DNA of 64,000 nucleotides from Candidatus Lustribacter sp. (GTDB lineage Bacteria > Vulcanimicrobiota > Vulcanimicrobiia > Vulcanimicrobiales > Vulcanimicrobiaceae), in the NCBI GenBank assembly GCA_965277805.1, contig OZ255842.1:640001-704000 (forward strand), written 5' to 3'. The notes under the pieces are model-generated. The model did no database searches. It was not told the DNA's origin and was given only the letters and a program-made list of their open reading frames with translations. Below are positions 1 through 15,995 of the stretch, in pieces. The position numbers and the translations under genes were made by a program. Each line of letters opens with the position of its first letter. Positions within the stretch are counted from its first letter, which is position 1.

Positions 1-330
1 CTCGGCGCGGCCGGCGGCACGATGCCGGCGCCTGGTTCGGCGCTCGCGGCGCTGCTGGTGGAGGCGTTTCACGCGGGTGATTTAGCGCAAGCGGTGCGCA
101 TCCAGCAACTGCTCAGCGAAATGCCGGCTCGCTGGATCGCGCACGGCCTCGTGGCTGTTTCGAAAGCGTCGCTGACCGCGATCGGTTTGGATTGCGGCCC
201 GACGTATCCGCCGTTCGGCACGGTACCGGCGAAAGATGCCGAAGAGATTCGCGTGTTCTGGGAAGCGGCGCTGAACGAGTTTCCCGTGCTTCGCAGTTAC
301 GAAGGGGAGCATTCCTTTGGCGCTCGTTGA
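1..330 (+). CDS. Dihydrodipicolinate synthase/N-acetylneuraminate lyase (class I aldolase) family protein, C-terminal part (5'-truncated by window)
   Basis: Frame open from base 1: LGAAGG...AFHAGDLAQAVRIQQ...KASLTAIGLDCGPTYPPF resembles the DapA-family C-terminus (GAxG...GD...A..lQ...K..l...G...G..R.P). Confidence 0.7.
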   Translation, partial: LGAAGGTMPAPGSALAALLVEAFHAGDLAQAVRIQQLLSEMPARWIAHGLVAVSKASLTAIGLDCGPTYPPFGTVPAKDAEEIRVFWEAALNEFPVLRSYEGEHSFGAR

Positions 331-1102
331 CGGCATCAATCATCTGCTCGTCCAGGTGACGGATCTCGACCGCTCGGAGGCGTTCTACCGCGACGTTTTC
401 GGCTTCGACGTCGTCGGGCGCGACCTCGTTGCGGAAGAAGGGCCGAATTCGCTCTTGCGCGCCGCCGGCGGACACATGATCCTGTTGGTGCAAGTTGCTG
501 AGGTCACGCCGTTTCGTCCGAACAGCATGAGCACGCATCACGCGTTCTACTTACGCGAAGAACAGTACAATCAGGTGATGGAGCGGCGGCGAGCGAGCGG
601 CTTCGACGTCGGCGACACGCGTGCGGTCTACCGCGCGAAAGGGCAGCTCAGTTTCGACGTCTTCGATCCCGACGGACACCGTTATCAAGTGCAGTCGGTC
701 GGTAAGGCGTCGGCCGAAAATCTCCTCGCGAACGAAGGGAACGTCGCGTGCGGAAAGGTCGACGACTTTGCGATCGGTTCGGTCACGCACTTCAAGGACA
801 AGCAGTTCTATCTGGTGCGTCAGGAACCGGGCTTTATGGCGATCTCGCACTGGTGTCCGCACATGAACGGCATGGTGGAGTATCGCGAATCGTACTGGTC
901 GTTCTACTGCCCGTTTCACGGCGCGACGTTCAACCGCAACGGCGAGTGCACCGCGCATCAAAAGTACCCCACCATGCGCGTTCATCCGGTGTCGATCGGC
1001 GATGGCGGCGAGGTACTCGTGAACACGGACGAGCTGGTGAAGCGTCCTCGCGGGTTCAGTCCGGAGCAGTTCACGCCGGTGCCGGTGCTGCAGCATGGCT
1101 GA
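317..1102 (+). CDS. VOC (glyoxalase/extradiol dioxygenase-like) domain fused to C-terminal Rieske [2Fe-2S] domain
   Basis: N-terminal GINHLLVQVTDLDRSEAFYRDVFGF, HHAF and DPDGH (VOC); C-terminal CPH-x16-CPFH Rieske motif; TTG start after GGGGAG RBS. Confidence 0.85.
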   Translation: MALVDGINHLLVQVTDLDRSEAFYRDVFGFDVVGRDLVAEEGPNSLLRAAGGHMILLVQVAEVTPFRPNSMSTHHAFYLREEQYNQVMERRRASGFDVGDTRAVYRAKGQLSFDVFDPDGHRYQVQSVGKASAENLLANEGNVACGKVDDFAIGSVTHFKDKQFYLVRQEPGFMAISHWCPHMNGMVEYRESYWSFYCPFHGATFNRNGECTAHQKYPTMRVHPVSIGDGGEVLVNTDELVKRPRGFSPEQFTPVPVLQHG

Positions 1103-1565
1103 AGTCGAGAGCCTCAACCACACGGCGATGTGCGTGCACGATCTGGTGGAGGCCTTGAACTTCTACTGCAACGTGCTCGGCGGAAAGCGCGCGACGCGCG
1201 TCAACTTTCAGATCGAGGACGTGCTCGGCGGCGTGGCGGTCTTTCAGTCCGTCATCCTCGAAGACTACATGCTGGCGCTGGCGATCGCGCCCAACGACAT
1301 GCCGATGCCGCCCGCCGATCAGCACCGCGGCGCGCATGGGCTTCGCCATGGCTTCGTCGTGACGCGCAACCGGTTCGACGAGGTTCGCGCATCGCTCGAA
1401 GCGCACGGCGTGGCGTACGACGGGCCGGTCGACCATCCCGAGCACGGGCCGTTTGGTCAGTCGATCTACTACAAGGATCCGTCGGGAAATTTCCTCGAGA
1501 CGCTCTGGCGGCGCGACGAAGATGCGCTCAATCTTGGCAAACGCCGCTTTGTCAGCACCGAGTAG
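1095..1565 (+). CDS. VOC family protein (single domain)
   Basis: LNHTAMCVHDLVEALNFY, RHGF and SIYYKDPSGNFLE give the His/His/Glu VOC metal motif. Confidence 0.85.
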   Translation: MAEVESLNHTAMCVHDLVEALNFYCNVLGGKRATRVNFQIEDVLGGVAVFQSVILEDYMLALAIAPNDMPMPPADQHRGAHGLRHGFVVTRNRFDEVRASLEAHGVAYDGPVDHPEHGPFGQSIYYKDPSGNFLETLWRRDEDALNLGKRRFVSTE

Positions 1566-2481
1566 CACGGCGTTCCCGTTCGCGCCGGCGCGCGAAGCGA
1601 TTCGTCTCGACGGCATCGCCTTCGTCGCGCTGCAGACCGTCGACGTCGAGCGCGCGGCGGCGTTTTATCGCGACGTGCTCGGATTCGTTGCCGAGCCCAA
1701 GGCGGAATTGCCGCGCGCCGGCGTGCACGCGATCGTCCGATCCGCTTCGGGTCAGCGGATCGCGTTGTGCGCTGCGGGCGACGTGCCGTTACCGCCCGAT
1801 ATGGGGCGCCACACCGCGTTCGGCGTCACGTCCGAGGCCAAGGCTGCGATCGTGCGACGTCTGGAAGCGGCGGGCATCGAGGTGCTGCGGTATGAGGAAG
1901 ACCGGCCGGCGGAACGCGCCGAGAATTGCTACTTCCTCGATCCCGGCGGCAACCGCATCCAGCTCGTTTCGGCGCCGGAGCAATCGATCGATCATGCTTG
2001 CATCCAAGCCGTCGACATCGAGTGGGAAGAAGATCTCTACGTCGGGACGCTCGCTCTGCCGGTGGATCACGTCGTCGGCTGGCGAACCGAGGATTACAAG
2101 CGCGCCGTGCTTTGGGGCGAGGGCAAGGAAGCCATGGCGCCGGGAACGCGCCGCTGGGACAAACGCTTCGCGCTGCGTCCCGGCCAAGGTCCGATGATCG
2201 CGCGCCCCAACATGCAGCTCTTCGTGCACGCGGGCCGCAACGTGCTCGGCGTCTTTCTCGCCTACGAGCACTATCAGTTGCCGTTCGAAGAGCAAATCGT
2301 GGGTACGCCGCGCATCGGCTTCGCCACGACCGCGAGCGAGCTTCCCACGATCGCCGCGCGTTTCGCGGAAGCGAAGTTGCCGGTCGACGGCCCGTACGAT
2401 CACCCTGCCACATCACCGTACCGCGCGTCGCTCTACGCGAAAGATCGCGGCGGCAATTTCCTCGAGTTCACGGTTTCATGA
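1549..2481 (+). CDS. Two-domain VOC family protein
   Basis: VDVERAAAFYRDVLGF, YFLDPGGNRIQL, IDHACIQ and YAKDRGGNFLEF; probable TTG start at 1549 overlapping the upstream gene end. Confidence 0.8.
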   Translation: MSAPSSTAFPFAPAREAIRLDGIAFVALQTVDVERAAAFYRDVLGFVAEPKAELPRAGVHAIVRSASGQRIALCAAGDVPLPPDMGRHTAFGVTSEAKAAIVRRLEAAGIEVLRYEEDRPAERAENCYFLDPGGNRIQLVSAPEQSIDHACIQAVDIEWEEDLYVGTLALPVDHVVGWRTEDYKRAVLWGEGKEAMAPGTRRWDKRFALRPGQGPMIARPNMQLFVHAGRNVLGVFLAYEHYQLPFEEQIVGTPRIGFATTASELPTIAARFAEAKLPVDGPYDHPATSPYRASLYAKDRGGNFLEFTVS

Positions 2482-3686
2482 CGCTTTATCCGCAGTTCTC
2501 GTTGCGCGAACGCGATCGCCGTTGGAAGGCCGTGCGCGACATCATGCGCGCCGAGAACATCGACGTGATCGTGGTGCCCAACAACACCGCGCACTCGACC
2601 GATTTTCAGGCCAACGCACGCTACCTCACGCACGTGGGCGGCGGCGGCGATGCGGACATCGCGGCGGTGATCCCGCTCGACGGCGACGTCACGGCAATTG
2701 CGAATCATCCGGAGCTGACGTTTCACGCCGGCATCCAGTCGTGGACGCGCGATCTGCGCAATGCCCGGCGCGACATGGGGAAGGGCACGGTCGAGCGGCT
2801 CAAGGAGCTCGGCATCGAGCGCGGGCGCATCGGCATCACCGGGCTCGGCGCCGGCACGCGCACGCCGATGGGCACGATCCTGCTCGGATTCTGGCGCGGC
2901 ATCGTCGATGCGTTTCCCAATGCCGAACTCGTCGATGCGACAAGCATTCTCGATCGCGTACGCTACGTGAAGAGCGATGAAGAAGTGGAAGCGCTGAGGC
3001 GGTCCGAGGAGATCATCGAGCAAGCGATCGCGGCGAAGATCGCGCACGCGAAGCCCGGTGCGGTCGATTGGGAAGTGTGGGCCGAAGTGATCTATGCGCT
3101 CACCAAGAACGGCTCGGAGCTGCCGGTGCACAATCAGTGGGCCTCAGGGAAACGCGTCAAGCATCCGATCACGCGCCCGACGCGGCGCAAACTCGAAACC
3201 GGCGATCTGATCGTCTCGGAGATCGAGGCGTCGTGGATCGGCTACCGCGCGCAGGCGATGCAGCCGGTGTTTGTCGGCAGCGCCGATCCCGTGTATCTCG
3301 AACTGATCAAGCTGCAGCGCGAGATTTGGAACACCGTGTTGGAGCAGTTGCGGCCCGGCGTCACCGTTGGCGAGCTTGTGGCGCTGACCGAAGCGACGTG
3401 TACCAAGCTGGCGCCCAAGAGCGGGCCGGCCGCGGGCGCGACCGCGATCCTCAACTTGCACGGCCGCGGCGCGGGCGACGACGGGCCGCTCGTGACGCCC
3501 TCGCAAAAGCGTCCCGAACAACTCGCCGTTCCGCTCGAAGCAAACATGGTGTTCATCTTCAAGCCGTTCGTGCGCTCGCAGAGCGGTGAAGATGAGTGCA
3601 CGTGGGGCGATACGGTCGTCGTTGCGCCGGCGGGCGGAAAGCGTTTGGGCAGCCGGCCGCACGATCTCGCCGTTTCCGGCACCTGA
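2478..3686 (+). CDS. M24 (creatinase/Xaa-Pro aminopeptidase fold) protein with non-canonical metal ligands
   Basis: SLRERDRRW N-terminus, RYVKSDEEVEALR hinge, pita-bread domain; ATGA overlap with upstream stop. Confidence 0.85.
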   Translation: MTLYPQFSLRERDRRWKAVRDIMRAENIDVIVVPNNTAHSTDFQANARYLTHVGGGGDADIAAVIPLDGDVTAIANHPELTFHAGIQSWTRDLRNARRDMGKGTVERLKELGIERGRIGITGLGAGTRTPMGTILLGFWRGIVDAFPNAELVDATSILDRVRYVKSDEEVEALRRSEEIIEQAIAAKIAHAKPGAVDWEVWAEVIYALTKNGSELPVHNQWASGKRVKHPITRPTRRKLETGDLIVSEIEASWIGYRAQAMQPVFVGSADPVYLELIKLQREIWNTVLEQLRPGVTVGELVALTEATCTKLAPKSGPAAGATAILNLHGRGAGDDGPLVTPSQKRPEQLAVPLEANMVFIFKPFVRSQSGEDECTWGDTVVVAPAGGKRLGSRPHDLAVSGT

Positions 3687-3688
3687 GC

Positions 3689-4732
3689 GTGAACGGACAC
3701 AACGTTCACCTGGTCGGCAGCGTGCCGTTGGCCGATCGCGACGCGGTGTTTCGTGCGACGGGCGAGATCCTCGGCGAGCGTTTGAAGCGCTATCCCGACG
3801 GCGAGACCGGCGATCGCGGCAACTGGGTGCAGTGGCAGCGGCATCTGGTCGTGGACAACCCGCAGTTCGTTCTTACCTCGAACGACCCGCTGGTCATCAA
3901 TCACGGCAGCACGCGACCGTATTTCCGCATCGTGCCGGGTGTCGATCCGGCGAGCGTGGCGTTCGCGCCGATCGGTTACGCGGAGAACGCGCGCGCGTCG
4001 TATCCCGCCTTCCGTGCGCTGCGCGAGGCCGGAGTGATCCCATCGTCCGCGCGTTTTCTGGTCGCGTTGCCGACGCCGCTTGCATTTTTGCAAGTCTTCA
4101 TCGACGCGCCGGACCGCGCACGAGTCGTTGCGGCGTACGAACGGCGCGTCCTGGCCGAGGTCGCGGAGATCGCCGCCGCGATTCCGCATCGCGACTTGGC
4201 GATCCAATGGGATACCGTGTTCGAGTTGCTGATTCTCGAGGGCGGCCGTGAAAGCAACATCGACGATTCGAGAGAGGCGCTCGTCGCGCGGCTGCTGGTC
4301 TGCGGCAACGCGGTGCCCGCCGAAGCGGACCTCGGCTTTCATCTCTGCTATGGGGACATGAACCACCGGCACTCGATCGAACCGCGCGATACCGCGCTCA
4401 TGGTCGAGATCGCGAACGCGCTCACCCGTGGCTTGCAGCGGAACCTGAACTATATTCACATGCCCGTACCGCGCGACCGCTTCGACGATGCGTACTTTGC
4501 GCCGCTGGCCGGCCTCGCGCTCGCTCCGGAAACCGAACTCTACCTCGGGCTCGTGCACATGACGGGCGGCGAAGACGGCATCCGGCGCCGGATCGCGGCA
4601 GCGAGCCGCGTACGGCCCGATTTCGGCATCGGTACCGAATGCGGCTTCGGCCGGCGGCCGCCCGAAACGATCGTGCCGCTGCTGCATCTGCATGCCGCGG
4701 CGGCGGAAGGTTGGACTGCCGAGGCTCGCTAA
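3689..4732 (+). CDS. Cobalamin-independent methionine synthase (MetE C-terminal)-like Zn protein
   Basis: HLVGSVP, PDGETGDR, IQWD, HLCYGD (HxC) and TECGFGR (third Cys ligand); start uncertain (GTG 3689). Confidence 0.7.
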   Translation: MNGHNVHLVGSVPLADRDAVFRATGEILGERLKRYPDGETGDRGNWVQWQRHLVVDNPQFVLTSNDPLVINHGSTRPYFRIVPGVDPASVAFAPIGYAENARASYPAFRALREAGVIPSSARFLVALPTPLAFLQVFIDAPDRARVVAAYERRVLAEVAEIAAAIPHRDLAIQWDTVFELLILEGGRESNIDDSREALVARLLVCGNAVPAEADLGFHLCYGDMNHRHSIEPRDTALMVEIANALTRGLQRNLNYIHMPVPRDRFDDAYFAPLAGLALAPETELYLGLVHMTGGEDGIRRRIAAASRVRPDFGIGTECGFGRRPPETIVPLLHLHAAAAEGWTAEAR

Positions 4733-4744
4733 CGCCGTCGTCGT

Positions 4745-5680
4745 ATGAACGATCGCCTTCCGCGTGCGAGTTGGCTCGCCTCAGGTGCTTCGGCCGCTGC
4801 GTTTGCAGCGCTGCCGTCAGGTGCGCGGGCGCAGAGCGCTGCACCGCTGCAAGTCGGTGCCGGATTGATCGAACCGCAAGCGCAGGCGTATTATGCTCGG
4901 GCCAACGGTTTCTTCAAGCAGCGCGGGCTCGATATTACCGTTGTGACGTCGGCAAACGGTGCGGCGACCACGGCGGCTGTAGCGGGCGGGACGCTGCAGA
5001 TCGGCGTTACCAGCGTACTCGGTCTCGCGCAAGCGGTCGGGCGCGGCTTGCCGTTCGTCACCTTCGCGCCGGGCGGCATTCACGATTCACGCTTTCCGGC
5101 CAGCGGTCTGCTCGTGCTGCCCGATTCGAAGATCGCGAGCGCGAAGGATCTGTCGGGAAAAATCGTCGCGGTCTCGACGCTCAAGGGGCTCGATCAGCTC
5201 GTCGTCGAGGCGCTCATCGATAAGCAAGGCGGCGACGTCAACACCGTGAAGTTCGTCGAGCTGCGTCCCACGGAAGGCCTCGCGGCGTTGCAACAAGGAC
5301 GCGTCGATGCGGTCAACCTCGAGGATCCCGAGTACACGGCGGCGCGCAGCCAAACGCGCCTGCTCGGCGACGCCGAGGACGCGGTCGGGAACGTCTTCGT
5401 CGAAACGACGTGGTTCGCCACCCGCGATTGGGTGTCGAAGAATACCGATGCGGCGCGCAAATTCCGCGACGCGATCATCGCCGCCGGCGCGTGGGCGATG
5501 GCAAACCCGCTACCCGCGGCCGCCATTCTGCAGCAAGATCTCAAGGTGACGACGACCCGCGCCACCCAACGCTTCGCGCCGCGTTTCAACCTGGCCGACT
5601 ACCAGCTGTTGCTCGATGCGGCGGCAAAGTTCAAATTCATCACCCCAATCAGCGCCGCCGACATGGTGATCGCGCTCTGA
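4745..5680 (+). CDS. ABC solute-binding protein, NMT1/THI5-SsuA/TauA type
   Basis: Signal peptide ending ARAQ, GFFKQRGLDI, DLSGKIVAV, ALQQGRVDA. Confidence 0.85.
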   Translation: MNDRLPRASWLASGASAAAFAALPSGARAQSAAPLQVGAGLIEPQAQAYYARANGFFKQRGLDITVVTSANGAATTAAVAGGTLQIGVTSVLGLAQAVGRGLPFVTFAPGGIHDSRFPASGLLVLPDSKIASAKDLSGKIVAVSTLKGLDQLVVEALIDKQGGDVNTVKFVELRPTEGLAALQQGRVDAVNLEDPEYTAARSQTRLLGDAEDAVGNVFVETTWFATRDWVSKNTDAARKFRDAIIAAGAWAMANPLPAAAILQQDLKVTTTRATQRFAPRFNLADYQLLLDAAAKFKFITPISAADMVIAL

Positions 5681-6609
5681 TGCGCCGCTCGCACGTGCTT
5701 GCCGCGGTCGCCGCGGCTGCGTTGAGTTCGGCCGTGCCTGCGCGGGCGGCCGACACCGCCCTCTCGGTCGGCGCGACGTTCGACGACGATATTTCCGCTA
5801 CGCTCTATGGTATCTCTGCGGGGATCTTTGCGCGCAACGGACTCGACGTCCACGTCGAACCGCTGCTGAGCGGTGCCGCCGGGGCGAGCGCCGTCGCTGC
5901 CGGAGCGTTGCCGATCGCGAAGTCGAGCACGATCGCGCTTGTCGCGGCGCACGCACACGGGCTGCCGTTCGTCATCATCGCGCCGTCGGTCGTGTTCACC
6001 GCCGACCGGCCGACGTCAGCGCTGATCGTGCGCAAAGACTCCACCTTGAAACCGGGCAAGGATTTCAACGGCAAGACGCTAGGCGTCTCGTCGCTCGTCG
6101 ACGCGCGCGTGATCTCGATCAAGGCCTGGATCGACCAGAACGGCGGCGACTCGAGTACGATGAAGTTCATCGAGATCCCGGCGTCGTCGGTGCTCTCGGC
6201 CGTCGATGCGGGCCGGATCGATGCCACGGTGGTCAGCAACACGCAGCTCGGCGATGCGGTGCAGTCGGGCCTGTTCAAGCAACTCGGCGAGCCGAACGCA
6301 GCGATCGGCAAACGCTACATCGTCAACACGTGGTACACCACGCGCGCTTACCTCGCGCAGAACCCCGACATCGTACACCGCTTCCTCGCCGCGCTTTTAA
6401 CGTCGGTCAATTACGCGAACGCCCACCCCACCGAGATGACCCAGTACCTCGCGCCCTTCGTCAAAATCGACGAAGCCAAACTGCGCAACATGACCCATTC
6501 GGTCATCGCCACGACGCTCGTCCCGGGCGAATACCAGCCCGTCATCGACGCCGCCGCCAAATACGGCTTCATCGACAAAGGCTTCCCCGCCCGCGACATC
6601 CTGTTGTAA
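5680..6609 (+). CDS. ABC solute-binding protein, NMT1/THI5-SsuA/TauA type
   Basis: Signal peptide ending ARAA, GIFARNGLDV, DFNGKTLGV, GRIDA; TGATG coupling to upstream gene. Confidence 0.85.
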   Translation: MRRSHVLAAVAAAALSSAVPARAADTALSVGATFDDDISATLYGISAGIFARNGLDVHVEPLLSGAAGASAVAAGALPIAKSSTIALVAAHAHGLPFVIIAPSVVFTADRPTSALIVRKDSTLKPGKDFNGKTLGVSSLVDARVISIKAWIDQNGGDSSTMKFIEIPASSVLSAVDAGRIDATVVSNTQLGDAVQSGLFKQLGEPNAAIGKRYIVNTWYTTRAYLAQNPDIVHRFLAALLTSVNYANAHPTEMTQYLAPFVKIDEAKLRNMTHSVIATTLVPGEYQPVIDAAAKYGFIDKGFPARDILL

Positions 6610-6617: not shown

Positions 6618-7226
6618 TTAGAGATACTTGAGGATCGACTCGGCGGTGAGTTCTTCGCCGGGGTCGTACTCCGGGGCGGTTTCGAGTTGTTCGAGGTCGT
6701 TGAGGCCGCTCTGTTTGTAGATGCGGTTGGTGATGACGATGACGCGCGCGGCGTGCTTGGGGTCGCCGTTGAAGTGCTGGCTGATGGTGTTCGGCGGGAT
6801 GTAGATCGTGTCGCCGGCTTCCCATTCGAAGCGCCGTTCTTCCGCTTGCGGTACCCACTGGTAGCGTTCGCCTTCGGCGATCGCGAGGTCGCAGTCGACG
6901 TGGATGTCGTAGCCGTAACCCTCGACCACGTATACGGCTTGTTCGGCCAGCTGACGGTGCCGTCCCGAACGGCTGCCGGGCGGAATGATCTGCATGTAGG
7001 CGTCGACCGTTTCGGCGCGCGTGTTCATCTCTTCGTTGACGAGGTGCTTGAGCAGACCGTGCGGTGAGTTCTCCCACGGATGATCGCTCGCTTTGATGAT
7101 CTTGCGGCGCGCTTTGTCGCGCTCCGGTTTGGTTTGCGCATCGTTGAGCAGCGAGGCGTAGTGCCGCCCGCCGACGTTCCCTTGGCGCCAGACCGAATAT
7201 TCATCCCACGGTGCTCGTTCGCTCAC
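6618..7226 (-). CDS. Cupin domain protein with degenerate metal motif
   Basis: IPPGSRSGRHRQLAEQAVYV and WEAGDTIYIPPNTISQHFN; GTGA overlap with upstream cupin gene. Confidence 0.8.
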   Translation of the reverse strand: MSERAPWDEYSVWRQGNVGGRHYASLLNDAQTKPERDKARRKIIKASDHPWENSPHGLLKHLVNEEMNTRAETVDAYMQIIPPGSRSGRHRQLAEQAVYVVEGYGYDIHVDCDLAIAEGERYQWVPQAEERRFEWEAGDTIYIPPNTISQHFNGDPKHAARVIVITNRIYKQSGLNDLEQLETAPEYDPGEELTAESILKYL

Positions 7227-7855
7227 TTCTTTGCGCCCTCGACCGTCTCGAAGTGTACGTGCGCGTGATCCTCGTGGTAATGATCGTGATCGTGATCGTG
7301 TTCGTGTTCGAAGGGTGAGGGATCTTCGCGCGGCACGAAGCCGACACCGGTCGGTGAGGGCTCGTGCGAGAACGGCACGACGGTGCGCTGGAAGAGCATG
7401 TTCATGAAGAGATACATCGGTTTCGTCTTCATCACGAGGCAGCGCGCCGGCTTCTCGGTGCTGCGATTGAAGTGCTGGTGCACGCAGTTGTTGTGCACGA
7501 TCGCGATGTCGCCGGCTTCCCACTCATAGCGTACGCCGTCGTGCACTTCGGCGCCGATGCCGTCGAGAATGTAGAACACCGCCTCGTTGACGTGCCCGTG
7601 CTTTTGCGACACGCCGCCCGGCGCGTACTCTTCGAGATGAATGTGCAGCGTCTGGCCGAGTCCATGCGCGGGAATCAGGTAATCGCGGTTGTACATCTGC
7701 GGATAGCCGGAGAACGGCGTTTCCGAGCCCTTGCGCACGCGCGGCAGCGAACGCAGACGATTGAGTTCTTGCGTGAGATTGTACTGCCCCTCGATGCCGC
7801 GCACGAACACGCGCTCGTCCAGCGTATGATCGTGCGGTTTCTTCGCTTCTGCCAT
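7223..7855 (-). CDS. Cupin domain protein with His/Asp-rich C-terminal tail
   Basis: APGGVSQKHGHVNEAVFYI and WEAGDIAIVHNNCVHQHFN; tail HEHDHDHDHYHEDHAHVH. Confidence 0.85.
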   Translation of the reverse strand: MAEAKKPHDHTLDERVFVRGIEGQYNLTQELNRLRSLPRVRKGSETPFSGYPQMYNRDYLIPAHGLGQTLHIHLEEYAPGGVSQKHGHVNEAVFYILDGIGAEVHDGVRYEWEAGDIAIVHNNCVHQHFNRSTEKPARCLVMKTKPMYLFMNMLFQRTVVPFSHEPSPTGVGFVPREDPSPFEHEHDHDHDHYHEDHAHVHFETVEGAKK

Positions 7856-7902
7856 GCGCCCTGAGTTCAACGCCGGAGGTCGAGCCCCCGGCAATCGAAA
7901 AC

Positions 7903-9042
7903 ATGCCGCTGATGCTTCAACGACGCGATTTCTTGGCCGGCGCCGCAGCTGCCGGCGCCGTGCTGGCGGGGGGCGAGCCGGCTTCGGCCGCGATCAGCTA
8001 TGCAAAACCCGCCGATTGGGACAAGATCGTGGCGGCGGCCAAACAAGAGGGCACGGTCGTGCTCTACGGTCCCTCGGGCGACTCGTTCTACGCCGCGCTC
8101 GTGACGCGTTTCCAGAAGGCGTTTCCGGAGATCAAGGTTCAGAGCACCATGGGCGTCGGCGCACAATTGGTGACGCGTCTGCAAGCCGAGCGCACGGCCG
8201 GACGTTATCTCGCCGACGTCTACGTCAACGGCAGCACCGTTGCGTTGCTGGGTCTCAAACCGGCCGGCGGCATGCAACCGCTTCCGCCGTGGCTCGTCCT
8301 GCCGGAAGTGACGAATCCCGGTGCGTGGCAGCAAAACATGCTGTGGTGGAACGACGGGCACGCCCCCAACACCAATCTCAGCTTCGCGGCGATTCTCTAT
8401 CCGGTCGCCTACTTCAATACCAACCTCGCCAAAGCGTCGTCCTTCCGCTCGTATTGGGATCTCGCCGATCCGAAATGGAAGGGTAAGGTCTGCTCCAACG
8501 ACATCCGCGTCATCGGCGCGGGAGGCGTTCCGGCGAGCTACATCTTCAAACAGCCCTCGCTCGGCGCGCCGTGGTTCAAGCGCTTCTTTGGCGACCTCGA
8601 CGTCGTGATGGGCCGCGATCAGCGTCAGCTCATCGATGGGCTCTCGCAGGGCCGCTACGCGATCGCGGGCTTCGTCTCAGCAGAAGAAGCGGCAACGGCG
8701 ATGGACCTCGGCCTGCCGATCGCACCGGTGCCGATCGATTCGCTCAAGGAAGGCTGCGCGGTCGGACCGGGCGGCGGCGCGATCTCGGTGCTCGACCGCG
8801 CGCCGCACCCGAACGCGGCGAAACTCTACACCAATTGGCTGTTATCGCGCGAAGGCCAAATCGCGTTTCAAGAAGAGACGAAGTACGCCTCGCTCCGCAA
8901 CGACGTGCCGAAGAGCAACCTCTTCCTCGCGCCGCGTCCGGGCAAAGCCTACGTCAACGCCGGCGCCGAACAGTACGGCTCCCTGCTCTCCGGCATCGGC
9001 ACGATGGTAACAGACATTCTCTCGAAGTCCGGCAAAGCCTAA
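7903..9042 (+). CDS. ABC solute-binding protein (Fe3+/thiamine/AfuA-like family), Tat signal
   Basis: RRDFLAG Tat motif; AAKQEGTVVLY, DLADPKWKGK, APHPNAAKLYTNWLLSREGQ. Confidence 0.85.
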   Translation: MPLMLQRRDFLAGAAAAGAVLAGGEPASAAISYAKPADWDKIVAAAKQEGTVVLYGPSGDSFYAALVTRFQKAFPEIKVQSTMGVGAQLVTRLQAERTAGRYLADVYVNGSTVALLGLKPAGGMQPLPPWLVLPEVTNPGAWQQNMLWWNDGHAPNTNLSFAAILYPVAYFNTNLAKASSFRSYWDLADPKWKGKVCSNDIRVIGAGGVPASYIFKQPSLGAPWFKRFFGDLDVVMGRDQRQLIDGLSQGRYAIAGFVSAEEAATAMDLGLPIAPVPIDSLKEGCAVGPGGGAISVLDRAPHPNAAKLYTNWLLSREGQIAFQEETKYASLRNDVPKSNLFLAPRPGKAYVNAGAEQYGSLLSGIGTMVTDILSKSGKA

Positions 9043-10007
9043 AGTTTTAACAGGCGGTCGGCGTTGCCGTGAGCGATCTTTTCTTTGTCGTCGGGGCTGA
9101 CGGGGAGGTCGTCAAGGAATTTGCGGGCGATGTCGTTGCGGCTGAACGGGTAGTCGACCGAGAACAGGATACGGTCGGCGCCGAACGTCAGGAGCGCGGC
9201 GAGAAACGGCGGGAACGAGAAGAAGCCGCTGCTCGTGATCGTCACGTGATCGAGGATCGTCTGGCTCACCGAACGCGGTAGACCGGTGATGCGTTGCGAG
9301 AGAAAGTCATCGCAACGCGCGAGCATCGTCGGCAGCCCTTCGCCCATGTGCCCGATGATGATCTTCAGACGTGGATGCTGATCGAACGTTCCGCTGAGCA
9401 CCATCCGCAGGACGTGGATCGCGGTCTCGGCGTGCCAGCCGAAGCCGGCGGTTGCGAACATCGATGAGACCTGTGGATTGTAGCCGTCGTAATATGCGTT
9501 GCGCACCGCCGCAGGCGGAACGCCGGGGTGAATGTAGATCGGCACGTTGAGCGCTTCGGCGCGCGCGAGCAGCGGTGCAAACGACGGATCGTCAAGGAAC
9601 TTGTCCTTGACCATGCCGCTCAACAGCGCGCCGCGGAAGCCGTGTTCGCGTACCGTGCGTTCGAGTTCGTCGGCCGCCGCCGCGGGTGCTGTCGACGGCA
9701 AGTGCGCGAACGCGGCGAACCGTGTTGGGTGTTTCCGCACGACTTCAGCAAGCGCGTCGTTGTAGCGCTTGGCGTAATCCGGCCCCGCTTCCGGCGAGAG
9801 CAGCACGGCACCCGGTCCGGGAACGGAGAGAATCTGCAGCGTGATGCCGTTCTCGTCCATCGACGGCAGACGCGCGCTTTCGATATCCTCGAGTGCATCG
9901 GCCCGGCTCGCACCGGAGCGGCCGCCGCGTTCGGCCGGAGCACGCTCCGCCAGCTCTTTGCTGAAGGCTGCGATGGAGACGTGTTCTTCGAGGGCTACGA
10001 TGCGCAT
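9039..10007 (-). CDS. Amidohydrolase-2 family protein, gamma-resorcylate/2,3-dihydroxybenzoate decarboxylase-like
   Basis: ALEEH, YIHP, IIGHMGE and FSVDYPF motifs. Confidence 0.85.
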   Translation of the reverse strand: MRIVALEEHVSIAAFSKELAERAPAERGGRSGASRADALEDIESARLPSMDENGITLQILSVPGPGAVLLSPEAGPDYAKRYNDALAEVVRKHPTRFAAFAHLPSTAPAAAADELERTVREHGFRGALLSGMVKDKFLDDPSFAPLLARAEALNVPIYIHPGVPPAAVRNAYYDGYNPQVSSMFATAGFGWHAETAIHVLRMVLSGTFDQHPRLKIIIGHMGEGLPTMLARCDDFLSQRITGLPRSVSQTILDHVTITSSGFFSFPPFLAALLTFGADRILFSVDYPFSRNDIARKFLDDLPVSPDDKEKIAHGNADRLLKL

Positions 10008-10065
10008 GAGCGGCTCCGTTCAAAGCATGGAAAGACCAACCCTCCGCTAAAATACCGGCTTGGCC

Positions 10066-11160
10066 ATGGCCGTCAGTGAAGCGAACGTCACCGTCACCGT
10101 CGACGGATTGTACAAGTCCTACACCGATCAGAAGCGTGTGGTCGGTGCCGTGCGCGGCGTGAGCTTCACAATTCGCGAAGGTGAGTTCTACACGCTGCTC
10201 GGACCGAGCGGCTGCGGCAAGACGACCACGATGCGCTGTATCGCCGGCCTCGAACAGACGGAACGAGGCGAGATCTCGATCCATGGTCAGCTCGTGTCCT
10301 CACCAGAAAAGAACGTGTTCGTTCCGCCCAACAAGCGCGACATCGGGATGGTGTTTCAGAGCTACGCGATCTGGCCGCACATGACCGTGTTCCAAAACGT
10401 AGCCTTTCCGCTCAGCGTGGCCGGCGTCCGCAGCGGTTCGAAAGAGATGCGCGAGCGCGTCGAGGAAGCGCTGGCGCTGGTCGAAATGGAAGACTACGGC
10501 GACCGCTTCGCAACGCAGCTCTCCGGCGGCCAGCAGCAGCGCCTCGCGCTCGCGCGTGCGCTCGTCCGCCGGCCGGCGCTCTTGCTCTTGGACGAGCCGC
10601 TCTCGAACCTCGATGCGCGGCTGCGCGATACGATGCGGACCGAGTTGCGCTCGCTGCAGCGCCGTCTCGGGATCACGACGCTCTACGTCACGCACGATCA
10701 GACCGAGGCGTTGAGCATAAGCAGCCGCATCGCGGTCATGCAAGACGGGCAGATCGTGCAGGAAGCGACGCCGCGCGAACTCTACCGCTCGCCGGCGAAC
10801 GCCTTTGTGGCGGAGTTCCTGGGCGTGAGCAATCGCATTCCGTGCACGGTCGCCGAAACCGGTGCCGTCGACACGAGCTTTGGCCGGGTGCAGCTCGCAA
10901 GCTCGGGCGCAGCTAGCGGCGCGACCGGCGTCGTGACGATCCGTCCCGAGCATCTGCGCCTGCACCGCAGTAGCGCGGCGCTGCCGAACGCCTTTGCGGC
11001 GCGCATCGCCTCGATCTCGTTCTTCGGCGAGCAATCGGAGTGCCACGTCGAGCTCAACGGCGCGACGTTGCGCGCGCGCGTGCCCTCCGATACGGAGTTC
11101 GCCGGCGGCGACGACGTGTGGCTCGAACTGCCCGCGCCGTCGTGCCGGCTGATCCTATGA
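10066..11160 (+). CDS. ABC transporter ATP-binding protein (PotA/FbpC type with TOBE domain)
   Basis: GPSGCGKT, LSGGQQQR, LLLDEP, YVTHDQ; TAAAAT lies shortly upstream, alternative TTG start at 10060. Confidence 0.95.
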   Translation: MAVSEANVTVTVDGLYKSYTDQKRVVGAVRGVSFTIREGEFYTLLGPSGCGKTTTMRCIAGLEQTERGEISIHGQLVSSPEKNVFVPPNKRDIGMVFQSYAIWPHMTVFQNVAFPLSVAGVRSGSKEMRERVEEALALVEMEDYGDRFATQLSGGQQQRLALARALVRRPALLLLDEPLSNLDARLRDTMRTELRSLQRRLGITTLYVTHDQTEALSISSRIAVMQDGQIVQEATPRELYRSPANAFVAEFLGVSNRIPCTVAETGAVDTSFGRVQLASSGAASGATGVVTIRPEHLRLHRSSAALPNAFAARIASISFFGEQSECHVELNGATLRARVPSDTEFAGGDDVWLELPAPSCRLIL

Positions 11161-12296
11161 CCGTCACGCGCCGGCGCGACTTTCTGCGTGCGGGCGCGGC
11201 CGCGGCACTGGCGGCGTCGGCCGCCGCTCCGGCAAGCGCCGCAATCAGCTATCAGAAACCGCCGGCTTGGGATGCGCTCGTGCGTGCCGCCACTGCAGAA
11301 GGCGCGCTCGTGCTCTACATTCCCGAGGGCGATGAGTACGAAGCGGCGCTGGTCACGCGCTTTCAGCGTGCGTTCCCGGCGATCAAGGTGACGAGCGCGA
11401 TCAACAGCGGCGCCGGAATCTCGCGCATCATCGTGGAGCGCTCGGCCGGGCGTTACATCCCCGACATTTGGGTTCAAGGCAGCACGATCGCGCTGCTCCG
11501 CCTCAAGCCGGTCGGCGCGCTGGCTACGCTGGATCCGCTCATCATTCTGCCCGAAGTTCTCGATCGCTCCGCATGGCTGCAGAATCAATTGTGGTGGAAC
11601 GACGCGCAGAAGCCGCTTACCAACATCAGCTTCGCCGGGTTGATGCTGCCGCCGGCCTTTGTCAACACCTCGATCGTGAAGCTCAGCGAGTTCAAATCGT
11701 ACTGGGATCTGGCGGATCCGAAGTGGCGCGGCAAGATCGCGGTCACCGACATCCGCACGATCGGGCCGGGCAGCGTGCCCGCGAGCTTCGTCTACCGGCA
11801 TCCCAAACTCGGTCAACCGTGGTTCGAGCGGTTCTTCGGCACGCTCGACGTCACGCTGAGCCGCAGCCAGCGCCAAATGGTCGACTGGTGCGTGCAAGGG
11901 CAGTATCCGATTATCGCGTTCACGTCGGCGACCGAGGCCTATACGGCGATGCAGCAAGGATTGCCGATCGAGCAGATCGCGCTCGAGCAACTCCGCGAAG
12001 GCGGTGCCGTCGGGCCCAATACCGGTTCGATCTCCGTGGTGAAGCCGGCGCCGCACCCCAACGCCGCAAAGCTCTATCTGAACTGGCTGCTTTCACGCGA
12101 GGGTCAACTCGCGTGGCAAGAAGAGACGAAGCAGTGCTCGCTGCGTCTCGACACGCCCAAGGATGGTTTGTATTTGGCGCCGCGCATGCACGCCGGCATC
12201 ACCTACGCCAACGGCGGCGCCCAAGAATACGGCGAAGCGGCGGCCGCCCTCAACGACGTGATCACCGGGATCTTGAAAAAGGCGGGGAAGGCCTAA
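11157..12296 (+). CDS. ABC solute-binding protein, close paralog of 7903..9042, Tat signal
   Basis: RRRDFLRAG; shares ISY.KP..WD, LWWND, SYWDLADPKW.GK and APHPNAAKLY.NWLLSREGQ with 7903..9042. Confidence 0.85.
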   Translation: MTVTRRRDFLRAGAAAALAASAAAPASAAISYQKPPAWDALVRAATAEGALVLYIPEGDEYEAALVTRFQRAFPAIKVTSAINSGAGISRIIVERSAGRYIPDIWVQGSTIALLRLKPVGALATLDPLIILPEVLDRSAWLQNQLWWNDAQKPLTNISFAGLMLPPAFVNTSIVKLSEFKSYWDLADPKWRGKIAVTDIRTIGPGSVPASFVYRHPKLGQPWFERFFGTLDVTLSRSQRQMVDWCVQGQYPIIAFTSATEAYTAMQQGLPIEQIALEQLREGGAVGPNTGSISVVKPAPHPNAAKLYLNWLLSREGQLAWQEETKQCSLRLDTPKDGLYLAPRMHAGITYANGGAQEYGEAAAALNDVITGILKKAGKA

Positions 12297-13339
12297 CCGC
12301 GGACTTGCGCGAGCTCGCGAGCGCGTTTGAACGAGTCTTTATCCTTCACCGCAAACGCTTCGAGACGCGCGTGCTCGCGCGGGATGCGGATCATCGGTTC
12401 GTTCTCGGCCGGGTCGCGCACGAGCGCGATCGGATCCTCACCGCGCTCGACGCGCTTCATGTTTTCTTCCAGCAGTTTGTGGTAGAGGATCACGCCTGTG
12501 TCGCCGGCCGTGAGGTGCTCCTGCGTGCGATCGGCGATCGGCCCTTGCGCCACCCAGGCAATGAAGTCTTGTTTGGGGATCGTGTCGCCGTACGGCGCTT
12601 CGTCGCCGTCGAAGAGATTCAGATAGCGCACCGTGAGTGACTTCGGCTCCGCGCCCGGCGCGCGCGCGATCGTGCGGTAACCGATCTGGATCGTGTTCGT
12701 GTCGTCGACCGGAATGCGATACTGAAAACTCGCCTCGCCGGTCTGGCCGACGGCGAGCAGGTTCGGGAAAATAAGCGGATGACCGGTCGTCCAGTCGTCG
12801 CAGTCTTCGCTCGAGCCTTCGAGCAGGCGCCGCTTCATGATGCCGAAGCGGTAGACGTCGAAGGCGATCTTCAAATGCTGTGCGGGCTCCATCATCGGCG
12901 GCTTGCCGAGCCGCGCGCGTTCGTAGTTGCCGAACCGTGCGTGCAAGAATTCGAAGTGCACCGGATCGACGGAGTTGTCCATGCACTGCAGCCAATTGCA
13001 CGGCAGCGCCACGATCTCGACCGCACGATCGAGATCGTCCGCAACGAGAATGTCCCAGCGCGGCAAGAGCGGTGCCGGCTGCGGTCCGAAATAGGCGAAC
13101 AGCAAGCCGCCGAGTTCTTGCACCGGATAAGCCGCGTGCGCGGCGGCCAGGCTGAAGCTGCCGCTCGGTTCGCGCCGCAGGCTGAGGTCTTCCCCGAAAA
13201 AACGCACGGCTTTCACCGGAGCGGCGTCGAGCTCGATCGCGGCGCCGATGGGGTGCCAATAACGCCGCAAGAGGTTGCCCATCGGGGTTCCGGGCCCGAT
13301 TTGCGTCAACCGTTCGTTCTGCGATTGCGTCGTCGCCAT
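12293..13339 (-). CDS. Rieske-oxygenase alpha-subunit homolog (phthalate 4,5-dioxygenase-like) lacking the Rieske [2Fe-2S] cluster segment
   Basis: GPGTPMGNLLRRYWHP N-terminus, catalytic NWLQCMDNSVDPVHFEFLH and QD all present; no CxH/CxxH anywhere. Confidence 0.8.
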   Translation of the reverse strand: MATTQSQNERLTQIGPGTPMGNLLRRYWHPIGAAIELDAAPVKAVRFFGEDLSLRREPSGSFSLAAAHAAYPVQELGGLLFAYFGPQPAPLLPRWDILVADDLDRAVEIVALPCNWLQCMDNSVDPVHFEFLHARFGNYERARLGKPPMMEPAQHLKIAFDVYRFGIMKRRLLEGSSEDCDDWTTGHPLIFPNLLAVGQTGEASFQYRIPVDDTNTIQIGYRTIARAPGAEPKSLTVRYLNLFDGDEAPYGDTIPKQDFIAWVAQGPIADRTQEHLTAGDTGVILYHKLLEENMKRVERGEDPIALVRDPAENEPMIRIPREHARLEAFAVKDKDSFKRARELAQVRG

Positions 13340-13367: not shown

Positions 13368-15062
13368 CTACCTGCTCGAGCGCAGGCCGACGTTCAAACC
13401 GAGCGTGCGCACGAGGATCGCCATGACGGTGGTGATCGCGGTAATGACGACCGTGATCACCGTCGCCGCTTCGCGCTGACCGTCGGCGACGAACCCCAAG
13501 GCCAGGAGCGAGAGCGTGCGCGTATCGGACGTCGCCAGCAGGATGATGTTCGATGTCGCGTTGGCGGCGTACATGAACTTGATCGCCGCCACCACGATGA
13601 GGGTCGGCGCAATCAGGGGCAGCACGATCTGGAAGTACGTGCGGACCCAGCCGGCCCCCGACATGCGCGCACTCTCCTCGAGATCGCCGCGCAGCTGCAG
13701 GAACGCCGCCTTGAGCGTTTGCGTCGAGAGCGTCATGCCGCTGAGGACGATCGCGATGACGAGCACCCAGATCGTGCCGTAGATCGGCCGGAAGATCGGC
13801 GTGCCGACGAACATCCACAATAGGCCCAGACCCGCGAGCGCGCCGGGAATCACGCTCGGCAGCCACAACAGAAAATCGAGTACGCCTTTACCCCAGGCCA
13901 CGCGCGCACGCACGAGCACATATGCCACGACCGAGAAGATGATCGGCGCGACGACGGCCGAGACGATCGCGATCTCGAATGTGTTGAACAGCGACTGATC
14001 GAAGGCGGGCGTGCTCAACGTGCGCTGCCAGTTGCCGAGCGTCCACGGGTGTGCGAGGGTGAAGAAGCCGAAGCGCGTCATGAAGCTGCCGGCGATCACC
14101 GACGCCAGCGGAACGGCCACGAGTAACCCCACGACCCCGGCGATCAGCACGAATACGGGCCACGTCCAGCGGCCGAGATCCATTTGCGCGGATTGGATGC
14201 GGCCGGTCACAGTGGTGTAGCTGCGGCGCGTCGTGAGCCAGCGCTGCACCGGCATCGCGATGAGCAGCAGCACCAGCGTCACGCTGCCGAGCGCGGTCGC
14301 CTGACCGAGCAGCGGCGGCACCTGTTGCGCGAGATCGACGATCTTCGTCGAGAACACGTAGAACCCGAACGGCACGCCGAGCAGCAGCTCGATCTCGAAG
14401 GATTCGAACAGCCGCACGAAGCCGAGGAAAAACACGATCACGAGCGCCGGGGTCATGATCGGCAACGTCACGCGCAGCAGCGTGCGCCAGCGATCGGCGC
14501 CCGACGTGTAGCCCGCTTCTTCGAGCGCCGCATCCATGTTGCGAAAGGCCGGCGTCAGCAGGATGACTTTCTCGGAGATGTCGCGGGCCATCAAGTGCAC
14601 CCAAACGATCCCGGCAAAGGAATAAATATTGAACGGTCCCGCGACGTGAAACGTCGTGGCCAGAAAATTGTTGAACACGCCGCGCGGATCGAGGAGCAGC
14701 ATCCACCCGAGCGTCGCCGAAAGCGGCGGCAAAAAGTACGAGAGCCAGAAGCCGAACTCGAGCGCCCGTCCGAACGGGACTTTGCTGCGGCCGAGCAGCC
14801 ACGCGAGCAGGATGCCGACGGGAAACGAGATCGCTTGATAGCATAGGCCGACCGCGATGGTATTCCACAGCGCTTGGCCGAGCCCGGGCCCGCGCCACGC
14901 ATCCGCCCACGCCCGCGCCGAATACGCCGGCGCTTGACCGGGCCCCGCGACGTTGAAGCTGTTGATGACGATCAGCGCGAGCGGGTAGACGACGAAAAAG
15001 CCGATCACCGCGATCAGCAGCAGCACGACGAGCTGCGCCGCGCTTGGCCGGGCGCGTGTCAT
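13368..15062 (-). CDS. ABC transporter permease, fused two-domain FbpB/ThiP type
   Basis: Many TM helices; two EAA loops (LEEAGYTSGA, LEESARMSGA); ATG 15062 overlaps the upstream stop. Confidence 0.9.
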   Translation of the reverse strand: MTRARPSAAQLVVLLLIAVIGFFVVYPLALIVINSFNVAGPGQAPAYSARAWADAWRGPGLGQALWNTIAVGLCYQAISFPVGILLAWLLGRSKVPFGRALEFGFWLSYFLPPLSATLGWMLLLDPRGVFNNFLATTFHVAGPFNIYSFAGIVWVHLMARDISEKVILLTPAFRNMDAALEEAGYTSGADRWRTLLRVTLPIMTPALVIVFFLGFVRLFESFEIELLLGVPFGFYVFSTKIVDLAQQVPPLLGQATALGSVTLVLLLIAMPVQRWLTTRRSYTTVTGRIQSAQMDLGRWTWPVFVLIAGVVGLLVAVPLASVIAGSFMTRFGFFTLAHPWTLGNWQRTLSTPAFDQSLFNTFEIAIVSAVVAPIIFSVVAYVLVRARVAWGKGVLDFLLWLPSVIPGALAGLGLLWMFVGTPIFRPIYGTIWVLVIAIVLSGMTLSTQTLKAAFLQLRGDLEESARMSGAGWVRTYFQIVLPLIAPTLIVVAAIKFMYAANATSNIILLATSDTRTLSLLALGFVADGQREAATVITVVITAITTVMAILVRTLGLNVGLRSSR

Positions 15063-15919
15063 GAGATGCGGTAGCGTCCTTCCAGCGTCACGTAATCGTT
15101 GAGGCCGACGAGACTCGTCAGATCGTCGAACGCCACCATCGGCGGCCCGGCCGGAATATCGTCGGCGACCAGTGCTGCGAGCGCCGCTTGCATCGCGTAG
15201 ACGGCTGCCGGCAGCACGACGTTGTACGTCACGACTTTGAAGCCCATCGCGCGCAAATCGGCGCGGCTGACGACCGGCGTTTTCGGCATCATGCTGGCCC
15301 ACGTGTACTTGAACGAGCCCGCGAAGCGGCGCATCTCCTCGATGCCGGCGAGCGCCTCGATGAAGACGATGTCCGCACCTTCCTCGACGAAATCGTTGCA
15401 CCGTGCCAGCGCTTCGTCGAGCCCGTGACCGGAGCGCGCGTCGGTGCGGCCGATGATCACGATATCCTTCGCGCCGCGCGCATCGACGGCCGCGCGCATC
15501 TTCATGCGCGCCTCGGCCCGCGAGATCACTTCCCGCGCGCCGCCGTAGTGCCCGCATTTCTTCGGCCACACCTGGTCCTCGATCAAGAGCGACGCCGCCC
15601 CGGCCTTGGCGAACTCGGTGACGGTGCGGCGCACGTTCATCGCGTTGCCGTAGCCGGTATCCGCGTCGGCGATGATCGGAAAGCCCGGCGTCGCGTCGCA
15701 CGTGTTGCGGATCTGATCCAGCACGTCGGTGAACGTGATCAAGCCGGCGTCCGGCAGGGCGTAGCGGTGCGCCGAAATGGCAAACCCGCCGAGCAGCGCG
15801 ATCGGGACGCCGCTGCGCTGGGCGAGGCGCGCCGAGAGCGGATCGCCCACGAGGGGGCAGAGCAGCAGGTCGTCGTTCGCGAGCAGCTCGCGGAACGTCG
15901 CGGTAGCATTCGTTTCCAC
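15059..15919 (-). CDS. Isocitrate lyase/PEP mutase superfamily protein (methylisocitrate lyase/2,3-dimethylmalate lyase-like)
   Basis: DPLSAR, LPDAGL, IADADTGYG, IEDQVWPKKCGH, GRTDA; GTG start after AAGGGGG. Confidence 0.9.
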   Translation of the reverse strand: METNATATFRELLANDDLLLCPLVGDPLSARLAQRSGVPIALLGGFAISAHRYALPDAGLITFTDVLDQIRNTCDATPGFPIIADADTGYGNAMNVRRTVTEFAKAGAASLLIEDQVWPKKCGHYGGAREVISRAEARMKMRAAVDARGAKDIVIIGRTDARSGHGLDEALARCNDFVEEGADIVFIEALAGIEEMRRFAGSFKYTWASMMPKTPVVSRADLRAMGFKVVTYNVVLPAAVYAMQAALAALVADDIPAGPPMVAFDDLTSLVGLNDYVTLEGRYRIS

Positions 15920-15995
15920 GCGACCCCCTTCTGCGAGGGAACCGGCATCCATCCAGCGCAGTTCGGCCCATGCGCCATCTGAGCGGGCAAATACA

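Follow-up and report, generated by a model that had tools for sequence, protein, structure and literature searches.

Few families of non-heme iron enzymes have been studied as well as the VOC enzymes and the Rieske oxygenases. The two have been viewed as distinct solutions, the VOC dioxygenases working without electron input and the Rieske oxygenases using one particular catalytic fold. To our knowledge, the catalytic iron lies in a Bet v1-like domain in all known Rieske oxygenases, and XylT is the one established case of a VOC dioxygenase using an electron carrier; XylT-type ferredoxins reportedly reactivate catechol 2,3-dioxygenase. Here we analysed a stretch of 64,000 nucleotides from Candidatus Lustribacter sp. 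(GenBank assembly GCA_965277805.1, contig OZ255842.1, positions 640,001 to 704,000 of the forward strand; referred to below as the window). Near its beginning, a gene encodes a protein in which a VOC domain is joined to a Rieske [2Fe-2S] domain (the fusion). This gene heads a conserved cassette of four, the other three encoding a single VOC protein (VOC1), a double VOC protein (VOC2x), and an M24-fold protein.

Several described systems share features with this cassette. The PcpA/LinE-type (chloro)hydroquinone 1,2-dioxygenases and the MhqO-like proteins of B. subtilis (4huz, 3oaj, 1zsw) have the same pseudo-dimer of two VOC halves, with the metal site between the halves. In PcpA, the iron ligands are His11, His227, and Glu276, as stated in a passage of PMC3204407. 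The cassette differs from these enzymes in that one of its copies is divided between two genes and bears a Rieske domain, and in that it has an extra invariant H/H/Q site; VOC2x is an unsplit copy without the middle His found in the PcpA site, and the sequence identity to the PcpA-type structures is only 10-17%. The Rieske non-heme iron oxygenases (naphthalene dioxygenase, NdmA/B, LigXa) share with the fusion a Rieske domain joined covalently to a domain bearing a mononuclear His/His/carboxylate site, and in these enzymes electrons are transferred between subunits, according to a passage of PMC10380055. In the fusion, the order is reversed, with the catalytic fold first and the Rieske domain last, the catalytic fold is VOC rather than SRPBCC/Bet v1-like, and the site would be heteromeric. 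XylT-type ferredoxins resemble the fusion in being iron-sulfur proteins dedicated to a VOC-fold ring-cleaving dioxygenase, but XylT is a separate protein, a [2Fe-2S] ferredoxin of the plant type. ChaP, the VOC dioxygenase of chartreusin biosynthesis (6a52), depends on an external reducing system and matches the fold of the VOC domain of the fusion (Z 11.8); however, it has no iron-sulfur domain, is homomeric, and tailors a natural product, whereas the fusion belongs to what would be a catabolic cassette with transporters. The cassette resembles a cross of PcpA-type dioxygenases and Rieske oxygenases and is a member of neither; the catalytic domain of the Rieske oxygenases is absent, and the PcpA triad would be rebuilt only across two chains.

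The VOC-Rieske fusion and its conserved partners

Both domains of the fusion exceeded their Pfam gathering cut-offs, with PF00903 at residues 6-124 (E 4.6e-13) and PF00355 at residues 158-216 (E 1.9e-8; 34.5 bits, cut-off 20.3). The Rieske motif is complete and consists of C180-P-H182 and C198-P-F-H201, with 15 residues between them. Across the three VOC proteins of the cassette, PF00903 scored 50.1, 48.9, and 53.4 bits (cut-off 20.6). For VOC2x, Pfam detected the first half only, the second half being recognised with hhalign and in the structure model. Pfam, NCBIfam, and the coordinates of the open reading frames (ORFs) confirmed the gene order and the families described in an initial annotation of this DNA (Table 1). 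The genes for the aldolase, the fusion, VOC1, VOC2x, and the M24-fold protein overlap successively by 14, 8, 44, and 4 nucleotides, and a gap of 2 nucleotides separates the last of them from the GTG at 3689. A scan for promoters and terminators gave counts at the level of shuffled sequence.

A homologue search in 5.8 billion protein clusters (E <= 0.001) gave 225 matches, of which 120 were listed. The listed homologues showed 48-83% identity to the fusion and, except for two truncated ones (216 and 219 residues), were 257-298 residues long; 109 of the 120 had both Pfam domains in their precomputed annotation. An alignment of 109 fusion sequences showed no variation at H9, H74, H75, Q124, Q126, C180, H182, C198, and H201, and the Rieske ligands were kept in 64 of 64 sequences in a separate column count. 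An assembly chimera was ruled out by these invariant ligands and by the presence of 63 full-length copies in independent assemblies. The fusion noticed in the initial annotation is thus genuine and conserved. Public databases annotate members of the family just as 'VOC family protein' or 'lactoylglutathione lyase'. In a profile search of 1.84 billion representatives at 50% identity, there were 15 matches in total at E <= 1e-30 and few full-length representatives (P0121, P0122, P0125, P0128, and P0145). Below these came mostly stand-alone Rieske proteins of ~110-260 residues, together with fragments and some VOC-domain matches. This indicated that the fusion family is compact and distinct.

The AlphaFold2 (AF2) model of the fusion was confident (pLDDT 90.3, pTM 0.80) and comprised two domains. 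The nearest folds of the VOC domain were small VOC proteins and FosA (Z 11-12.7). The Rieske domain was closest, in sequence as well as in fold, to the Kuenenia Rieske protein kuste4569 (9rk4; E 2.1e-14, Z 16.6, root-mean-square deviation (rmsd) 2.2 Å over 110 residues, 29% identity). Small soluble Rieske proteins of the respiratory type are subunits of Rieske/cytochrome b complexes, whereas the window protein starts directly with its VOC domain (MALVDG...). The extra cysteine pair of the respiratory type is also missing from the window domain, position 185 being Gly and position 200 Phe, Met, Tyr, or Leu. A distant member of the family, the metagenome protein P0125 (263 residues), has the sequence CTHLQC ... 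CYCH, i.e. the respiratory-type cysteine pair that has no counterpart in the window protein.

No PDB chain spanning a VOC and a Rieske domain was found by sequence search, with Foldseek (TMq <= 0.39), or in an exhaustive VIA-align comparison over 48,161 chains. A paper that mentions both a VOC family and a Rieske domain treats them as separate proteins. Neither the PDB nor the literature outside subscription-only papers yielded a characterised enzyme or a solved structure with a VOC-Rieske architecture, which the initial annotation had likewise not recognised from characterised pathways. We also considered known families for the fusion. A Rieske oxygenase alpha subunit was rejected, as there was no match to PF00848, PF19112, or PF19301 and the Rieske domain lies C-terminal to the VOC domain. 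The XylT-type ferredoxin family was rejected because the domain is of Rieske type and has no PF00111 match, a result that lowers the case for family membership and not that for a XylT-like role.

To define the partners of the fusion, one genome per species was scanned, which gave 76 loci, and these were searched by tblastn with the window proteins. The counts that follow leave out the frameshift-split copies in L006, L055, L057, and L059, those at contig ends in L058 and L060, and the VOC-only relatives L061-L077. Among the 63 full-length copies of the fusion, 61 had at least 1.3 kb of DNA downstream, and VOC1 followed in all of them (61/61). When at least 3.7 kb was available downstream (n = 53), VOC2x was found in 49 copies and the M24 gene in 48 (46 downstream and 2 divergent upstream), VOC1, VOC2x, and M24 being all present in 48. 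An SBP_bac_1-type binding protein was encoded at most 6 kb from the fusion in 46 of these 53 copies (tblastn, 22-37% identity). Five loci had a second copy of the fusion and VOC1 without VOC2x or M24 in the downstream DNA examined (3.8 kb in four of them, 2.4 kb in L030), which indicated that the constant core is the fusion and the small VOC protein. The pairwise distances of the four proteins were correlated over 45 cassettes (r 0.80-0.91; 0 of 500 permutations reached the observed values), genome kinship contributing to this correlation. Tandem duplicates of the whole cassette within one locus showed 41-74% identity.

The three VOC genes are thus conserved together. The 'operon' of the initial annotation, which was headed by the fusion and extended to a MetE-like gene, has to be narrowed, since the conserved core consists of the fusion, VOC1, VOC2x, and M24 only. 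Among the loci, L004 and L006, both of the window's own lineage, were the only ones with the aldolase gene ahead of the fusion. Among related loci, the MetE-like gene was present only in L006, as was the NMT1 pair of the window type; L002 and L004 each had one distant NMT1-type gene after M24 (41% and 37% identity, respectively), which in L004 lies on the opposite strand. Relative to the cassette, the genes for the aldolase, the MetE-like protein, and the NMT1-type proteins are thus local additions. In L006, which is 96% identical to the window, the fusion, VOC1, and VOC2x were recovered in several tblastn pieces in different frames, most likely due to sequencing frameshifts rather than gene decay.

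Split paralogy and predicted composite metal sites

Profile-profile comparison with hhalign showed that the VOC domain of the fusion (A-type) matched the N half of VOC2x (E 5.3e-24) and that VOC1 (B-type) matched its C half (E 2.3e-30). The fusion and VOC1 are therefore a split copy of the double VOC protein to which a Rieske domain has been added. The AF2 model of VOC2x (pLDDT 90.9, pTM 0.88) aligned across both halves, over 232-239 residues, to 1zsw (Z 20.7), PcpA (4huz; Z 20.4, rmsd 2.8 over 232 residues), and 3oaj (Z 20.2). It also aligned to GLOD4 and to maize glyoxalase I (Z 18-19), so that VOC2x models as a pseudo-dimer of the PcpA or two-domain glyoxalase type. The classical type I extradiol dioxygenases (BphC, XylE, HPCD) aligned to one domain of VOC2x only (Z ~11, 112-119 residues), with a whole-chain TM of 0.31-0.33 and an rmsd of ~19-20 Å. 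This single-domain alignment and NCBIfam scores of 15-27 bits, versus cut-offs of 320-450, led us to reject a classical enzyme of this type.

The same domains also occur in other combinations. P0128, a metagenome protein of 418 residues, is a natural triple fusion with a B-type VOC, an A-type VOC, and a Rieske domain in one chain. A word-index search, which is weak evidence in this respect, had found no longer fused form, and P0128 was then found by the exhaustive profile search. Its ligands differ from those of the window family, with Glu in place of Gln at A-type beta8 and no His-His. L061:7551-8396 encodes a 281-residue fusion of a B-type and an A-type VOC domain without a Rieske domain, next to a similar binding protein and a fused permease. 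By eye, this protein has the H/H/Q pattern, and L062 and L063 gave the same pair of tblastn hits with the same coordinates. The L061-L063 forms may represent a Rieske-less state of the wider family.

Taken chain by chain, the candidate metal ligands are H9, H74-H75, and Q124 in the fusion, H9, H85, and E135 in VOC1 (column conservation from the 62-row alignment A3), and F34, H97, Q147 and H158, R264, E315 in the two halves of VOC2x. The sets listed in the initial annotation are correct, but counting them per chain is misleading since the predicted sites are composite. Prediction of a complex between the fusion and VOC1 gave an ipSAE of 0.86, the best control reaching 0.00. This mark was attained by 116 of 157 solved complexes and by 2 of 215 mismatched pairs, counts that hold only roughly as custom alignments were used. 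The runs shared at least 87% of their contacts, and the partner pLDDT was at least 82. The contacts with the least error put residues 7-11 of the fusion (including His9) on residues 84-88 (including His85) and 135-137 (including Glu135) of VOC1, and residues 1-13 of VOC1 on residues 72-80 and 126-128 of the fusion. They reproduce the strand pairing of the PcpA-type pseudo-dimer.

These contacts point to two metal sites, both composite. Site 1 is predicted to be a 2-His-1-Glu site made of H9 of the fusion and H85 and E135 of VOC1; its ligands are all invariant and would mirror H11, H227, and E276 of PcpA. Site 2 is predicted to be a 2-His-1-Gln site made of H9 of VOC1 and H74/H75 and Q124 of the fusion, which are also all invariant. 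VOC2x keeps site 2 (H158/H97/Q147, invariant). Its site 1 is degenerate, with F34 in the window protein (H in 41 of 53 sequences) and no middle His, E315 being present.

The paralogy, the triple fusion P0128, and the complex prediction agree with the earlier proposal of a multi-subunit VOC enzyme with metal sites between subunits. Alternatively, the four proteins could be independent enzymes of a single pathway whose genes simply stay together, and the fusion would then act alone, for example as a homodimer, and not in a hetero-complex. Conserved operons do often encode consecutive pathway steps, and homodimers are common among small VOC proteins, examples being the PDB entries for FosA and glyoxalase I. 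We nevertheless consider this explanation very unlikely in view of the complementary ligands of the A-type and B-type domains, the fused forms VOC2x and P0128, the adjacency of the fusion and VOC1 in 61 of 61 copies, and the prediction of their complex.

The fourth member of the cassette was compared, as a 46-sequence profile, with the Pyrococcus prolidase 1pv9. D209, D220, H284, E313, and E327, which we take to be the metal ligands of the prolidase (D209 and D220 were confirmed in the printed alignment), corresponded to E248, Q259, A332, K362, and G377. E248, Q259, K362, and G377 do not vary among the 46 M24 sequences, and A332 lies outside the invariant or nearly invariant columns. As all five metal ligands of the peptidase are replaced, the M24 protein is not a canonical metallopeptidase. 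Its profile matched prolidases (E 4.4e-26) and creatinase (E 6e-13), and its NCBIfam scores were far under every family cut-off (e.g. 72 bits versus 575 for DoeA_2). It thus shares the Creatinase_N domain and M24 fold of the pita-bread proteins (prolidase, creatinase, ectoine hydrolase DoeA, dimethylsulfoniopropionate lyase DddP) but lacks the five ligands of the dinuclear site.

Possible chemistry of the cassette

We tentatively favour the view, which is quite possible though short of probable, that the region encodes a heteromeric Rieske-coupled VOC oxygenase, in which the cluster feeds electrons to a VOC iron for O2 activation. The domains, the ligands, their conservation, the synteny, and the paralogy have been demonstrated above, the heterodimer and the geometry of its sites are predictions, and the iron, the use of O2, the electron path, and the class of substrate are what we infer here. 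The minimal unit would be a heterodimer of the fusion (A-type VOC plus Rieske) and VOC1 (B-type), in which the two chains would rebuild the two-domain pseudo-dimer of PcpA-type hydroquinone dioxygenases and two-domain glyoxalases. VOC2x would be the unsplit, Rieske-less paralogue retaining the H/H/Q site only, and the M24-fold protein would be the fourth constant partner, in the role of a subunit or of a hydrolase, other than a peptidase, that acts in the same pathway. The Rieske cluster would receive electrons one by one from a generic donor of the cell and hand them to the VOC iron site, and O2 would then be activated as in Rieske oxygenases, on the VOC catalytic scaffold. The substrate would be a small imported compound, probably aromatic or hydroquinone-like, and the cassette would function as an accessory catabolic module.

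Several observations weigh against such an oxygenase. Rieske-less relatives that seem to have the same H/H/Q pattern (L061-L063) exist, and VOC2x itself has no Rieske domain, which suggests that the core chemistry may need no electron input. Gln instead of Glu is unusual at an O2-activating iron site. In the predicted heterodimer, no residue of the fusion beyond 128 touches VOC1, so that the model does not place the Rieske domain next to a composite site. VOC homodimers are abundant among solved structures, and a resemblance to these may in part explain the success of the complex prediction. No ferredoxin reductase is found recurrently around the cassette (Flavin_Reduct in 3 and Fer2 in 2 of the 58 clustered loci), and the families of aromatic type each accompany only a minority of the loci (4 to 18 of 58).

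Some of these observations would be accounted for by redox maintenance, i.e. by a ring-cleaving dioxygenase like PcpA or LinE that needs no electrons for turnover and in which the Rieske domain only re-reduces Fe(III), like a built-in XylT-type ferredoxin. In its fold arrangement and its predicted composite H/H/E site, the complex agrees with PcpA, and the fact that the Rieske-less relatives and VOC2x keep the same site pattern suggests that the Rieske domain is an add-on. The lack of a dedicated reductase recurring nearby is also as with XylT. However, invariant Rieske ligands and one domain copy per enzyme exceed the usual need for repair, XylT proteins are plant-type ferredoxins and not Rieske proteins, and PcpA has nothing that corresponds to the invariant H/H/Q site. 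We regard pure redox maintenance as fairly unlikely.

The relatives of the individual domains lead to another explanation, which does not involve an oxygenase. FosA-type transferases are the proteins nearest to the VOC domain in sequence, the Rieske domain is closest to respiratory-type soluble domains rather than oxygenase ferredoxins, and the Gln ligand resembles the zinc site of human glyoxalase I. The VOC sites could then carry out a redox-neutral or reductive reaction, for example isomerisation, thiol transfer, or cleavage of a C-X bond like those of glyoxalase I, FosA, and ArsI. In that case, the Rieske domain would take up or supply the electrons of a reductive or dehydrogenating step, or serve as a module with a redox or structural role. 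Membership of the FosA/FosB/FosX families was rejected because the best score (Fos_GSH, 38 bits) was far under the cut-off of 180. This score, the oxygen-dependent enzymes encoded in the neighbourhoods, and the composite 2-His-1-Glu triad, which is the classic O2-activating motif, make a non-oxygenase unlikely in our view.

Genomic setting and significance

At the 58 clustered loci, the cassette was accompanied by FbpA/PhnS-like binding proteins (35 loci), bicupins (18), a fused permease (17), LysR regulators (15), a TOBE-type ATPase (12), LigXa-like Rieske oxygenases (11), Amidohydro_2 proteins (8), UbiD (7), and ring-hydroxylating alpha and beta subunits (5 each). The neighbourhood in the window also contains cupins, an Amidohydro_2 gene, a LigXa_C-like ORF, and further binding proteins (Table 1). 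We tried to deduce the substrate from the binding protein and found only a distant likeness to binding proteins of the Fe3+/2-aminoethylphosphonate type (E 3e-6 or weaker), which was uninformative.

Table 1. Features of the cassette and its surroundings; positions are those of the window unless a locus is given.
Feature	Position	Strand	Remarks
DHDPS-family class I aldolase, 3' end	1..330	+	Gene start 623 nucleotides before the window; whole gene L001:11377-12330, PF00701 E 2.7e-28
VOC-Rieske fusion protein, 261 residues, TTG start	317..1102	+	PF00903 and PF00355; heads the conserved cassette
A-type VOC domain of the fusion, residues 6-130	332..706	+	Invariant H9, H74, H75, Q124, Q126
Rieske [2Fe-2S] domain of the fusion, residues 140-245	734..1051	+	Ligands C180, H182, C198, H201
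VOC1, single VOC, B-type, 156 residues	1095..1565	+	PF00903; invariant H9, R84, H85, E135
VOC2x, double VOC, A-type and B-type halves, 319 residues	1522..2481	+	Pfam (first half), hhalign, AF2 model
M24-fold protein, Creatinase_N and pita-bread, 402 residues	2478..3686	+	Pfam
347-residue gene, GTG start	3689..4732	+	No Pfam family; 'MetE-like' a lead only; outside the conserved core
Two NMT1/SsuA-type solute-binding protein genes	4745..5680, 5680..6609	+	PF09084 E 8.5e-30, 2.8e-28; local neighbours
Two adjacent monocupin genes	6618..7894	-	Listed ORFs 6618-7523 and 7223-7894 overlap by ~300 nucleotides; kept in L004, L006
SBP_bac_1-type binding protein	7903..9042	+	Pfam; relative of the binding-protein family accompanying the cassette elsewhere
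Amidohydro_2	9039..10007	-	
ABC ATPase with TOBE domain	10060..11160	+	
SBP_bac_1/11-type ORF	11040..12296	+	
LigXa_C-like ORF	12293..13339	-	
1451-residue ORF	13368..17723	-	Overlaps the hydantoinase pair on the opposite strand; for the most part probably not a true gene
Hydantoinase/oxoprolinase A and B subunit pair	15777..19771	+	PF01968, PF02538
Flanking cupin/JmjC-like ORFs, ~380-394 residues	L001:9004-10188; 24576..25706	+	Weak Pfam matches

The label 'MetE-like' given initially to the product of 3689-4732 can be kept only as a lead. In the ESM Atlas, its neighbours were clusters automatically named 'Methionine synthase family protein' (0.97), clusters bearing PF01717 reaching just 0.80-0.81. 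No Pfam or NCBIfam match was found for this product even at E 10, and no sequence match in the PDB. The binding protein encoded at 7903-9042 showed a weak, sub-threshold match to a twin-arginine (TAT) signal (20.5 bits versus a curated cut-off of 22.7). One of the two monocupins had a weak likeness to 5-aminosalicylate 1,2-dioxygenase (31.5 bits versus a cut-off of 650). The two monocupins may form a heteromeric cupin dioxygenase, and the start of the downstream gene probably lies internal to the listed ORF.

The carriers of the fusion are uncultured soil bacteria from several phyla (Alphaproteobacteria, Binatia, Gemmatimonadota, Chloroflexota, Eremiobacterota), with up to five copies per genome among the loci examined. 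The genome from which the window was taken has one copy and was the sole carrier among 201 genomes sampled from its phylum. In a midpoint-rooted tree, the window sequence grouped with two Candidatus Lustribacter sequences inside a clade of Alphaproteobacteria and Gemmatimonas (supports 100/95 and 99/94). This placement is consistent with horizontal acquisition of the cassette.

The cassette is probably the sign of a redox-coupled non-heme metal enzyme of a type not yet described. It is somewhat unlikely, yet worth stating, that it represents a new class of Rieske-dependent oxygenase. In such a class, the iron would lie in a heteromeric VOC scaffold between the fusion and VOC1 and not in a Bet v1-like domain, and electrons could cross subunits, possibly also towards the H/H/Q site of VOC2x. 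A de-metallated M24 protein would be a fixed fourth component, and expansion of the family would have produced substrate-specific cassettes, each provided with a binding protein of its own. The conserved and widespread weld of a Rieske to a VOC domain, with a partner predicted to complete a 2-His-1-Glu site, breaks the separation between the VOC and Rieske families. It provides a four-protein, expressible system for asking how far external electrons can drive a VOC scaffold, and it flags unstudied catabolic capacity in abundant uncultured soil lineages.

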